From assembly GCA_964517155.1 (NCBI GenBank), contig CAZFAZ010000059.1:1-48235 (forward strand): a stretch of 48,235 bases of DNA. The letters run 5' to 3'. The notes below the pieces were generated by a model. That model did not search any database, was not told where the DNA came from, and was given only the letters and a program-made list of their open reading frames with translations. Both the position numbers and the translations under genes were made by a program. This document shows positions 46,780 through 48,114 of this stretch, piece after piece; the first letter of the stretch is position 1; every line of letters begins with the position of its first letter. The stretch comes from an uncultured Thermoplasmatales archaeon (GTDB lineage Archaea; Thermoplasmatota; E2; DHVEG-1).

Positions 46780-47727
46780 TTATCCTTGATAAGCAAAATT
46801 ATGTTTTGCTCTGTTTATTATTGGGATTGACTGTCGTTCTTCATCACCAAATTTAAACGATGGCATATTTTTTAACAACATAGGATCGTAATTCCTGTGA
46901 CTATGACATTTATTTCTTAGTTTCCTCTGAACATTGTTAAATATCTCAACACTGATAATAGGTTTAATTTCAGTTTTTTTGAAAAAGTGACACCATCTTT
47001 CAACACCAGCATAAAAACAATTGTGTAGATAATATCGAATTGAGGTATTGCTAAGTTTTTTCTCAGGAAATGGATTAGTTCTATTCTTATTTTCATTCTT
47101 GAGAATTCTTGAAATCTGTCTCATACTAAATCCATCTAGATAAATCTGAAAAATTTGCTTAATTATTTCAATTTCTTCAGGAACCTCAATAAAAGATTTG
47201 CTGTCTGAATCCCATCTGTAACCAAATGGAACTCTATGACCCATAAATCCACTATCTTTTTTCTTTGCTTTTTGAAGTTGTCCTGCAAAAACTCTTTCAC
47301 CAATCTGTTCACTTTCAAGTTGAGCAATATCTTGAATAATACCCATTACAAAACGACCCATGGCAGTGCTTGTATCAAGGCTTTCTGTCATTGAAATAAA
47401 CTGTTTATTTTGATTTTGTAGATCATTCATCATCTGGATAAAATTTAGTCGATTTCTATGAATTCTATCCATTTTAATTACAACTATTGCATCCCAATTT
47501 TCAATGTCATCCAACATTTTTTTATATTCAGGTCTTCTAATATTACAACCACTATATCCACCGTCGACATATTCTGCAACTACATTCCATTCTCTTGCAT
47601 TACAAAATGACCTTAATCTATCTAACTGTGATTCTAGGCTAAATCCTTCATGTGCCTGCTCATCAGTTGATACTCTGCAGTAAAGAGCAACATTGTTAAT
47701 TTTAAAGGCATCAAAATCGTATAACAT
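46780..47727 (-). CDS. Serine recombinase (resolvase catalytic domain plus recombinase domain), compact at 315 aa
   Basis: ALYCRVSTDEQ (nucleophile Ser), GYSGCNIRRPEYKKMLDD, VVIKMDRIHRN, then PFGYRWDSD, which is recombinase-domain-like. ATG at 47727 is preferred; the 27-codon track extension is rejected. Confidence 0.87.
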   Translation of the reverse strand: MLYDFDAFKINNVALYCRVSTDEQAHEGFSLESQLDRLRSFCNAREWNVVAEYVDGGYSGCNIRRPEYKKMLDDIENWDAIVVIKMDRIHRNRLNFIQMMNDLQNQNKQFISMTESLDTSTAMGRFVMGIIQDIAQLESEQIGERVFAGQLQKAKKKDSGFMGHRVPFGYRWDSDSKSFIEVPEEIEIIKQIFQIYLDGFSMRQISRILKNENKNRTNPFPEKKLSNTSIRYYLHNCFYAGVERWCHFFKKTEIKPIISVEIFNNVQRKLRNKCHSHRNYDPMLLKNMPSFKFGDEERQSIPIINRAKHNFAYQG

Positions 47728-47767
47728 TTGTATATTATATGTAATACACATAAGATATAAATAGTTT

Positions 47768-47794
47768 ACTTGTATCTTATATAAATATACAAGT
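47768..47794. promoter_or_regulatory. Inverted repeat ACTTGTAT-(11 nt containing TTATATAAA)-ATACAAGT in the recombinase/RHH divergent promoter region
   Basis: Arms at 47768..47775 and 47787..47794 flank a TATA-like core. Confidence 0.35.
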
Positions 47795-47851
47795 GAGATA
47801 CAAAACAAAAGACTAAAATAGTAAGATTATCATACAACGCTTTGAGGAGAT

Positions 47852-48037
47852 ATGCCAAAAAAAGTAACCGAAACCGAACCAGTTCCGCTAAGACTACCTG
47901 TAGCAATGATAGAAGGAATAGACTACGCAATAAAAATCGGACAAGGAAGTAATAGATCCGACATAATTAAGACTGCAATTGCTAATTATTTGCGTGAATT
48001 AAACATCACAAACGAGCTGAAAAAACGTAAATCTTAA
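47852..48037 (+). CDS. Ribbon-helix-helix (CopG/Arc/MetJ-like) DNA-binding protein, 61 aa
   Basis: VPLRLPVAMIEGIDYAIKIGQGSNRSDIIKTAIANYLRE fits beta-strand/helix/helix RHH topology. GAGGAG Shine-Dalgarno. Confidence 0.7.
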   Translation: MPKKVTETEPVPLRLPVAMIEGIDYAIKIGQGSNRSDIIKTAIANYLRELNITNELKKRKS

Positions 48038-48087
48038 ATTTTTATTTATAACACACTATAAATTTATTTTTCTCCTGTTGATTAGCT

Positions 48088-48114
48088 TGCTCTACCTAGC
48101 TGAGCTACAAGCCC
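48088..48114 (-). repeat. att-like direct repeat copy 3 (tRNA-Lys 5' fragment, probably the native displaced half)
   Basis: TGCTCTACCTAGCTGAGCTACAAGCCC is identical to 42100..42126. The flank beyond it lacks the 17-mer shared by copies 1 and 2. Confidence 0.75.

Follow-up and report, generated by a model that had tools for sequence, protein, structure and literature searches.

A two-domain serine recombinase as the probable integrase of an element at the tRNA-Lys 5′ end in a Thermoplasmatota archaeon

The described systems closest to the locus reported here are the large serine integrases, the recombinases of the staphylococcal cassette chromosome (SCC) and the islands that tyrosine integrases place in tRNA genes. 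The locus is found in a 48,235 nucleotide (nt) contig, CAZFAZ010000059.1 of assembly GCA_964517155.1, from an uncultured Thermoplasmatales archaeon; this whole stretch of DNA is referred to as the window. Two tandem units, element A and cassette B, lie in the window between kptA and a tRNA-Lys(CTT) gene. Element A encodes a 315 amino acid (aa) serine recombinase and, divergent from it, a small ribbon-helix-helix (RHH) protein. The comparisons of sequence and predicted structure presented here indicate that the recombinase probably acts as site-specific integrase for an integrative element of 4.36 kb, which occupies the tRNA gene at its 5′ end. Related contigs are given as L numbers.

The large serine integrases (TP901-1, Bxb1, phiC31, SPbeta SprA, A118) share with the window protein the YxRVS(T/S)xxQ motif of the catalytic serine, a long alphaE helix and the PF07508 domain. 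In both cases the gene is at the end of the integrated element beside an att site, and the site is predicted to be an imperfect inverted repeat around a central dinucleotide. The large serine integrases are however ~450-700 aa in length, and the window protein lacks the zinc ribbon and coiled coil and terminates in a conserved tail, IPxINRAKHNY. The target also differs, i.e. the 5′ end of a tRNA gene in an archaeal host, with 24-28 nt of identity. In the large serine integrases, the zinc ribbon and coiled coil provide discrimination between attP and attB as well as directionality. To our knowledge all characterised serine integrases use this apparatus.

Cassettes moved by the SCCmec recombinases CcrA/B and CcrC enter one conserved gene at its end and leave its function intact, similar to the case of the window. 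SCC insertion at rlmH (orfX) results in direct repeats and in tandem arrays that include recombinase-less units (psiSCC, composite SCC), and these features are found in the window as well. Unlike the window protein, the Ccr proteins have a chain length of 440-560 aa with C-terminal domains, their target is the 3′ end of a bacterial protein-coding gene, and the cargo consists of resistance genes. In tRNA islands formed by tyrosine integrases (Islander; SSV- and pNOB8-type), as in the window, an intact tDNA and a fragment bracket the island, the attP fragment restores the gene, and units accrete in tandem. However the window recombinase is of the unrelated serine family, and it is the 5′ end and promoter of the tRNA gene that are replaced, not the usual 3′ end. 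Cassette B and its relatives resemble cis-mobilizable elements and integrative mobilizable elements (CIMEs and IMEs) of the accretion-mobilisation model in having a single cargo, the same att core and a half-site-like arm while encoding no recombinase; they differ in host and in recombinase family, and mobilisation of cassette B would be in trans. Unlike integrons, the array has no fixed platform integrase or attI, and the cassettes carry their own promoter-like arm. IS607 TnpA has a serine catalytic domain and occurs in archaea, but it displays an N-terminal MerR-like helix-turn-helix (HTH) and a C-terminal catalytic domain and is usually found with TnpB. Overall, the window system would work like a serine-integrase or SCC-type cassette system.

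Archaeal serine recombinases have previously been seen only in transposons (PMC8371274). IMEs with serine recombinases have very short flanking repeats and are usually gene-disrupting (PMC5704250), and proviruses that use serine integrases are found preferentially in coding sequences, with short att cores (PMC13626063). In marine Prochlorococcus, a large serine recombinase is encoded by 27 of the 937 tycheposons and cryptic integrative elements described (10.1101/2020.12.28.424599). By recombinase type, these 27 elements are the nearest bacterial precedent found. A literature search of incomplete coverage, such that an earlier description is possible, gave no account of this family or of serine integrases targeting archaeal tRNA genes.

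The mechanical open reading frame (ORF) of the recombinase is at 46780-47808 on the minus strand and has a TTG start. An ATG at position 47727 gives the 315 aa chain with the N-terminal sequence MLYDFDAFKINNVALYCRVSTDEQ, and this start agrees with those of all close homologs. Analysis by Pfam shows a Resolvase domain (PF00239, E = 2e-37) at residues 13-156 and a Recombinase domain (PF07508, E = 3.5e-13) at residues 183-272, after the alphaE helix. Pfam gives no match to the zinc ribbon PF13408 (Zn_ribbon_recom), and there is no coiled coil. The AlphaFold2 (AF2) model has a pLDDT of 86.7 and displays a catalytic domain at 12-120, alphaE at 122-155 and a recombinase domain at 170-273, beyond which there are ~40-43 residues with a short strand, a pair of small helices and a tail of low confidence. 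A first-pass annotation, made from the nt sequence without database searches, had described the protein as having these two domains with neither zinc ribbon nor coiled coil, and both analyses agree with it. Truncation of the gene relative to its homologs had also been considered there. The protein search yielded more than 3000 relatives, and of the best 120 homologs nearly all have lengths of 250-344 aa; thus the gene is not truncated. The C-terminal IPxINRAKHNY motif is conserved across family members of 295-344 aa. Residues Y16, R18, S20, Q24, D87, R88 and R91 are invariant in the family alignment and all are kept in the window copy.

A sequence search of the PDB places the TP901-1 integrase catalytic domain first (E = 1.9e-28, 40% identity), ahead of invertases (~1e-14) and gamma-delta resolvase (~1e-9). 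By Foldseek against the PDB the top match is SprA (9dxh; E = 4e-14, TMq 0.61, 312 columns), then Bxb1, TP901-1 and phiC31; the AF2 model aligns to SprA and Bxb1 across ~310 columns, and the scores of resolvases, invertases and IS607 TnpA (E ~1e-6) are far lower. The NCBIfam ranking has CcrB at the top (E = 3.7e-43), followed by XisF, CcrC and CcrA. All NCBIfam matches are far under the equivalog cut-offs: that of CcrB is 148 bits against a cut-off of 900 and covers profile positions 4-240 of 542, and that of the IS607 transposase (E = 1e-13) is 51 bits against 110 and spans the catalytic core only. Matches to resolvase YneB (E = 2e-7) and invertase Mpi (E = 4e-6) are weak. HTH_7, the C-terminal domain of small serine recombinases (proteins of ~180-200 aa), was not found by Pfam and the Recombinase domain is in its place. 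The catalytic domain is N-terminal, which is not the layout of IS607 TnpA, and no TnpB-like ORF is present within the island. The protein also differs from the SCC Ccr proteins in its score under the cut-off, its length outside 440-560 aa and its target, which is tRNA-Lys rather than rlmH. The recombinase falls outside the resolvases, the invertases and the IS607 TnpA proteins; it is a member of the large-serine-recombinase lineage without the zinc-ribbon/coiled-coil module. Since this module was tested for and is absent, the protein is not a characterised large serine integrase in the strict sense. The family is a large, mostly archaeal one of two-domain serine recombinases in which the zinc ribbon and coiled coil were lost or never present.

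The tRNA-Lys(CTT) gene is the sole tRNA of the window according to ARAGORN. A 23-nt core of its 5′ end, CTACCTAGCTGAGCTACAAGCCC, is present in three copies, at 42104-42126, 43729-43751 and 48092-48114, where shuffled sequences give an expectation of 0. The first-pass annotation had envisaged a single element between two repeats. The three core copies instead delimit two tandem units between the tRNA gene and kptA, i.e. element A of 4.36 kb (43752-48090), with the recombinase, and cassette B of 1.6 kb (42127-43727), without it. In the tRNA sense, the order is kptA, core (48114-48091), A right arm, RHH gene, recombinase gene, 941-aa gene, the left arm termed X (43816-43752), core (43751-43728), B right arm with a hairpin, AlbA_2 gene, X-like left arm (42192-42127) and intact tRNA. 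The ORFs of 100 aa or more that fall wholly inside the island are those of the AlbA_2 protein (443 aa), the 941-aa protein and the recombinase, plus a 123-aa ORF antisense within the AlbA_2 gene; there are no others. As proposed, the recombinase and its RHH partner form the sole recombination module between the repeats of tRNA origin. The locus displays the Islander signature of an intact tDNA, displaced fragments in direct orientation and a recombinase gene between them, with an integrase that is of the serine and not the tyrosine type. The unit at 42127-43727 has cores on both sides, AlbA_2 as its sole gene and no recombinase, as in a CIME or psiSCC.

The left arms of cassette B and element A are 75% identical to one another. 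The right arm of cassette B begins with ACAATCTAATTCAATCTGCTCTTCTGTTAAAT in the tRNA sense, has a half-site-like sequence, ACAATCTAAT, adjoining the core, and ends in the hairpin TTCGTTATA-CAA-TATAACGAA (43664-43684). Both the A and B right arms show RCAAKCTAAT straight after the core, and on this basis the B cassettes are proposed to be substrates of the same enzyme. The final 83 nt of the window encode the KptA C-terminus, which matches that of L001 residue for residue (...DVYITDGIDAKYISK...). A tyrosine recombinase just outside the window, which had been considered as a source of the repeats, is not found on the kptA side, where the window ends inside conserved kptA.

Homologs of the recombinase with 54-64% identity are found on circular contigs of ~10.3 kb and on insertions of 10.3-10.7 kb, and many relatives are on contigs of ~10.2-10.8 kb. 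L087 (1-10431) and L088 are rotations of one sequence with terminal overlaps of 141-144 nt, which gives a circle of ~10.3 kb. In L087, L088 and L089 the sequence GGGCTTGTAGCTCAGCTAGGTGGA, which is tRNA-Lys nt 1-24 and the attP core, occurs exactly once per contig. ARAGORN and Rfam detect no tRNA in the circular contigs, where only approximate string matching revealed the core. Ahead of the core is a promoter-like arm similar in type to that upstream of the tRNA in L090 and L099, and after it comes CCTAGCTAAGC in L087/L088 and GCTTGCTTTAC in L089.

The integrated forms show the same core. L107 (recombinase 59% identical) has a 10.25-kb insertion at 5035-15288 between a fragment of nt 1-24 and an intact tRNA-Lys, and L109 (54% identical) has a 10.66-kb insertion at 4541-15197 between tRNA-Lys and a fragment beside KptA/RpiA. 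L190 opens with the core, and the recombinase module comes next. Gene content unites the free and integrated forms in one element family: both have an ATPase (45-73% identical), a pair of small conserved proteins and further genes. The genes of the 10-kb family include a HerA/FtsK-like ATPase, conserved proteins of 190 and 125 aa and a tail-spike-like beta-helix protein. There are weak viral matches, i.e. to the packaging-ATPase-like phrog_2666 (E = 1.5e-6) and the tail-spike-like beta-helix phrog_3783 (E = 7.6e-14), and the 10-kb elements, which resemble viruses or plasmids, are possibly small temperate viruses. Apart from the recombinase and the beta-helix protein L087 has no ORF of 250 aa or more, and L089 has none apart from the recombinase; thus there is no hidden tyrosine integrase. 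A search of IMG/VR gave no match by DNA pattern, and the closest protein relatives there are at most 48% identical; the 10-kb elements have no entry as viruses in that catalogue. L191, a 10.8-kb contig with a recombinase of 48% identity, has neither a tRNA-Lys core nor a terminal overlap.

Two further observations concern these larger elements. Immediately after the recombinase gene, L087 (7072-7620) encodes a 182-aa protein in which a resolvase-type HTH_7 is combined with a zinc ribbon at the C-terminus, with homologs in L089, L107 and L109 and none in the window; this protein might supply in trans the DNA-binding functions which the recombinase is without. In L107, outside the element, a 432-aa tyrosine integrase (Phage_integrase; 15325-16623, minus strand) overlaps the 3′ end of the same tRNA-Lys, a sign that the other end of this gene may be used by a second element unrelated to the first. 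An origin of the mini-elements as simple deletion derivatives of the 10-kb elements with shared cargo was considered and rejected, as the 455-aa cargo protein of L001 shows no similarity to the 453-aa protein of the circles.

The window attP was reconstructed as the reverse complement of 43752-43816, the core GGGCTTGTAGCTCAGCTAGGTAGA and GCAAGCTAATCAACAGGAGAAAAAT. Identity between repeats always begins at tRNA nt 1 and extends as far as nt 23 in L109, nt 24 in L107, the A unit of L001 and the middle copy of the window, and nt 28 in the distal copy of the window (48087-48114). In a dyad scan of six reconstructed attP sites, each has its best or joint-best centre within nt 22-24, mostly at nt 22-23; the centre at nt 23-24 in L107 is due to a tRNA D-loop that is one nt longer. 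The predicted dinucleotide, nt 22-23, is at 42104-42105 in the intact tRNA and at 48092-48093 in the distal copy. The clearest case is L087, where the right arm repeats the tRNA D-arm sequence almost perfectly in inverted orientation and the dyad GCTCAGCTAGGT-GG-ACCTAGCTAAGC has 11 of 12 matches, a score equalled by 2 of 20000 right-arm shuffles. The A-type site of L001 matches at 9 of 12 positions (6% of shuffles equal this). In L107 and L109, the identity block stops exactly at the predicted dinucleotide. These data are suggestive of a 2-bp exchange at the right edge of the identity block, at nt 22-23.

The first-pass annotation had considered repeats of this length, derived from a tRNA, to be mechanistically odd for a serine recombinase. 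Their tRNA origin is upheld, and they represent the tRNA 5′ end specifically. The oddity largely dissolves: since the dyad centre is at the 3′ edge of the identity block and fits a normal 2-bp crossover, the long repeat would reflect the tRNA 5′ end that the element must replace and not a requirement of the mechanism. The left half-site would then be the tRNA D-arm, common to attP and attB. Identity over nt 1-21 would stem from the need of the element to bring these nt for rebuilding the tRNA, and not from a need of the enzyme for long homology. A site of ~26-34 bp would fit a protein that binds DNA via its recombinase domain alone.

The host is placed by its GluRS sequence, which is 86% identical to a ‘Candidatus Thermoplasmatota archaeon’ protein and 72% identical to those of Thermoplasmatales SG8-52-3 and SG8-52-4; by these matches it is a sediment Thermoplasmatota archaeon. 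A DPANN host, suggested by the low G+C content and giant surface proteins, is ruled out by this placement. The flanks of the locus are conserved in L001/L002, L004, L090 and others, with kptA-rpiA on one side and glycogen-metabolism genes on the other; the KptA/RpiA flank is kept in L001, L004, L090, L094, L098-L101 and L109. The content between kptA and tRNA-Lys is different in each related contig.

The RHH-recombinase module together with the A right arm is found at six or more independent loci, at a fixed position beside the arm, with cargo, order and upstream neighbours that vary. The A-type right arm is conserved in the window, L001, L003, L004, L096, L097, L101, L102 and L104. In L001, L002, L003 and L103 the cargo is the 455-aa protein and the recombinase unit adjoins the tRNA, with a 1.2-kb MNT cassette between the unit and kptA, the reverse of the window order. 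L004 and L005 have a radical-SAM gene and a 203-aa ORF between the A arm and the RHH gene. The A arm directly adjoins kptA in L096, which is from the same metagenome as L001. L101 and L102 come from one sample; in one of these contigs the A arm adjoins kptA, and in the other this same arm adjoins a cassette that has CRISPR-like repeats. The recombinase unit is behind an AbiEii cassette in L097 and behind another cassette in L104, where the 941-aa cargo of the window is found beside the recombinase with 91% nt identity. Among six A-type copies, the ratio of nonsynonymous to synonymous substitution (dN/dS) of the recombinase gene is 0.10-0.16, at dS values of 0.46-0.80, which indicates purifying selection. 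The proposal that this is the integrase module of a tRNA-targeting archaeal element is supported by the fixed arm position, the circles with attP, the flanked insertions, the dN/dS values and the Thermoplasmatota host.

The first-pass annotation had also placed a 61-aa RHH gene divergent from the recombinase. This gene is confirmed; its product matches RHH_1 (Pfam, E = 1.8e-4) and, weakly, CdrS of NCBIfam, and the gap between the two genes is 124 nt. The RHH protein is 95-100% conserved beside the recombinase in L001-L005, L096, L097, L102 and L104. An invariant palindrome, CTTGTAT-N11-ATACAAG, is found at 47769-47793 between the two genes and is a putative RHH operator. Read most simply, the RHH protein would act on the recombinase as a repressor or autoregulator, and it may be a directionality factor. 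Between attP and the recombinase of the 10-kb elements there is a small RHH-like ORF of another kind, and the one in L087 shows no significant similarity to the window RHH.

B-type right arms are conserved in the window, L001, L090, L094, L095, L098-L100, L105 and L106, and B-type cassettes with AlbA_2 or MNT cargo are sometimes alone between kptA and the tRNA (L098, L100). The window segment 42044-43758, consisting of the tRNA and cassette B, is 94.3% identical in nt sequence to L098, and the AlbA_2 protein has a counterpart there of 97% identity. Outside the cores there is no alignment, and the edges of the shared segment coincide with the cores. Thus cassette B is a discrete unit common to otherwise diverged genomes.

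The cargo of these cassettes is defence-like. It includes the AlbA_2/Schlafen-HATPase-winged HTH protein of the window (42220-43551), an MNT-type nucleotidyltransferase pair, PDC-S09, in L001 (8537-9521) and AbiEii in L097 (74-826, E = 1.5e-68). L102 has, within positions 1-130, two copies of the 30-nt sequence GTTAGAATCAGACCATTGTGGGATTGAAAT, 66 nt apart and just upstream of the X-type arm; these are CRISPR-like and a CRISPR array may be cassette cargo. The kptA/tRNA-Lys locus looks to behave as a defence island.

A mechanism can be proposed for these elements. The attP site would consist of a promoter-like arm, tRNA-Lys nt 1-24 and a second arm. A recombinase dimer would bind each site of ~26-34 bp, and cleavage and exchange would take place at the 2-bp crossover at tRNA nt 22-23. 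Integration would push the original tRNA 5′ end away, leaving the displaced end beside kptA, and the element would supply a new promoter and nt 1-24 such that the tRNA stays functional. The RHH protein would bind the palindrome between the two genes and control expression of the recombinase, perhaps also directionality. Cassettes without a recombinase that share the core and resemble the element in their half-site (with AlbA_2 in the window, and MNT, AbiEii and CRISPR repeats at other loci) would build up in tandem at this site and were probably moved in trans. As a joint proposal, this describes a minimal two-domain serine integrase for the tRNA-Lys 5′ end, controlled by the RHH protein and/or the C-terminal tail, which also moves defence cassettes in trans and so builds an integron- or SCC-like array. 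This combination is put forward tentatively, and we would give it somewhat less than an even chance.

Table 1. Features of the kptA/tRNA-Lys island in the window
Feature	Position	Strand	Basis
Intact tRNA-Lys(CTT) gene, with the att core at nt 1-24 (42103-42126)	42052-42126	-	ARAGORN, repeat mapping
Left arm of cassette B, promoter-like, adjoining the intact tRNA on its upstream side	42127-42192	-	Repeat family D5, junction table
Cassette B cargo, 443-aa AlbA_2/Schlafen, HATPase_c_4 and winged-HTH protein, defence-associated	42220-43551	-	Pfam, PADLOC domain matches
Right arm of cassette B	43664-43727		B-type arm conserved across loci
Middle copy of tRNA-Lys nt 1-24, junction of cassette B and element A	43728-43751	-	Repeat mapping
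Left arm of element A (X type), promoter-like, would sit upstream of the tRNA after integration	43752-43816	-	Junction comparison
Element A cargo, 941-aa secreted/surface protein with repeated Ig-like domains and a C-terminal membrane anchor	43896-46721	-	ORF list, Pfam
Serine recombinase, predicted integrase	46780-47727	-	Pfam, PDB sequence search, AF2 model, Foldseek, NCBIfam, dN/dS
Divergent regulatory region	47728-47851		92% identical across six loci
61-aa ribbon-helix-helix protein, predicted recombinase regulator, possibly directionality factor	47852-48037	+	Pfam RHH_1, NCBIfam
Right arm of element A, element-borne half-site, GCAAGCTAATCAACAGGAGAAAAAT in the tRNA sense	48066-48090	-	Arm conserved across loci
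Distal copy of tRNA-Lys nt 1-24, displaced original tRNA 5′ end beside kptA	48091-48114	-	Repeat mapping
3′ end of chromosomal kptA (tRNA 2′-phosphotransferase), conserved flank	48153-48235	-	Translation compared with L001

Both cargo genes contain internal repeats. The 3′ part of the AlbA_2 gene has five tandem 11-nt units (TTTCTCCCAAC) at 42386-42450, in the linker before the winged-HTH domain. The 941-aa gene has repeats of ~249 nt at 45796-46435, which are 71-85% identical and encode Ig-like/CarboxypepD_reg domains. Elsewhere in the window, a 520-aa ORF at 17233-18795 has a DUF772 transposase domain and is a possible IS element, and an 834-aa ORF at 6723-9227 has a weak match to LanC-like proteins (lanthionine synthetase C).

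Several observations weigh against the recombinase being an active integrase of element A. Neither an unoccupied attB, with kptA leading straight to an intact tRNA-Lys, nor a circular or attP form of the 4.36-kb mini-element was found. The junctions of X arm, core and A arm in L097, L102 and L104 were considered as a possible mini-element attP and rejected, since the upstream DNA is that of another cassette (AbiEii in L097, CRISPR-like repeats in L102); the junctions of L097 and L102 are tandem junctions. The dyad of the window site is weak, with 8 of 12 matches (12% of shuffles equal this). Position 61 of the window recombinase is Cys (codon 47545-47547), whereas at least 90% of the family, including the closest relatives, P0001 and P0005, have Arg at this position in the SGRN motif; the aligned TP901-1 residue is Ala and thus the site is unlikely to be catalytic. 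On three contigs (L090, L098, L100) B cassettes are present with no recombinase nearby, so that their mobilisation in trans is a proposal. The repeated arm and core, ~85 nt in length, could also allow units to be shuffled by homologous recombination. A survey of homologs for adjacent tRNA-Lys fragments, as suggested in the first-pass annotation, was positive for close relatives (the circles, L107, L109 and L190) and negative for the distant Thermoplasmatota homologs (277 aa, at most 54% identical). The core is absent from all 80 GTDB loci of the latter, and most of these have no tRNA within 8 kb. Thus tRNA targeting is a property of this clade that is not generalisable to the 277-aa Thermoplasmatota clade.

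The alternative that survives best is that the window element is a domesticated or fossil remnant of a family that integrates in tRNA-Lys, with the array kept or reshuffled by homologous recombination of arm and core. Cys61 and the absence of an attP form of the mini-element are consistent with this, as is the finding that element A and the 10-kb elements have only the recombinase in common; the X arm and core would provide the homology for RecA/RadA-type exchange. However a remnant would not be expected to show the low dN/dS of the recombinase, the conservation of the RHH protein and the 92% conserved regulatory region. The element arms are intact, and the module is found in varied array positions and with varied cargo, even within one metagenome. 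A fossil origin is therefore considered unlikely, and an integrase in use remains the preferred interpretation.

A far less probable alternative is that the serine recombinase is a passenger resolvase or invertase and that integration in tRNA-Lys is carried out by an enzyme encoded off the element, e.g. a helper tyrosine integrase. Resolvases are frequent on small circular replicons. Targeting of tDNA was known only for tyrosine integrases (PMC4383910), and L107 does have a Phage_integrase gene that overlaps the 3′ end of the same tRNA. This gene however is outside the element at the other end of the tRNA and cannot explain the duplicated 5′ fragments. Complete circles with a tRNA-derived attP encode no second recombinase, the position of the recombinase gene near the att arm is fixed, and the protein is nearest to the large serine recombinases of integrase and Ccr type, with the Recombinase domain instead of HTH_7. 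Finally, the notion that there is no mobile element, and that the tRNA 5′ fragments are a local segmental duplication of the promoter region with ordinary chromosomal genes between them, draws on the similar promoter-like sequence upstream of the fragments (repeat family D5) but is highly improbable and largely refuted by the differing kptA-tRNA content of every related genome, the same core in the circular elements and the coincidence of the L098-shared boundaries with the cores.

If the recombinase is an integrase as proposed, it would constitute a third archaeal integration machinery beside the SSV/pNOB8-type tyrosine integrases and the casposases, and would overturn the working rule that only tyrosine integrases target tRNA genes. 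It would also provide a natural test of models which place the directionality of serine integrases in the zinc-ribbon/coiled-coil, as stable insertions are apparently kept without that domain. A 315-aa integrase with a site of ~30 bp would be an attractive compact tool for biotechnology. In the ecology of benthic Thermoplasmatota, temperate elements of ~10 kb and the mini-cassettes derived from them would load defence genes (AbiEii, MNT, AlbA_2 and CRISPR repeats) at one locus.

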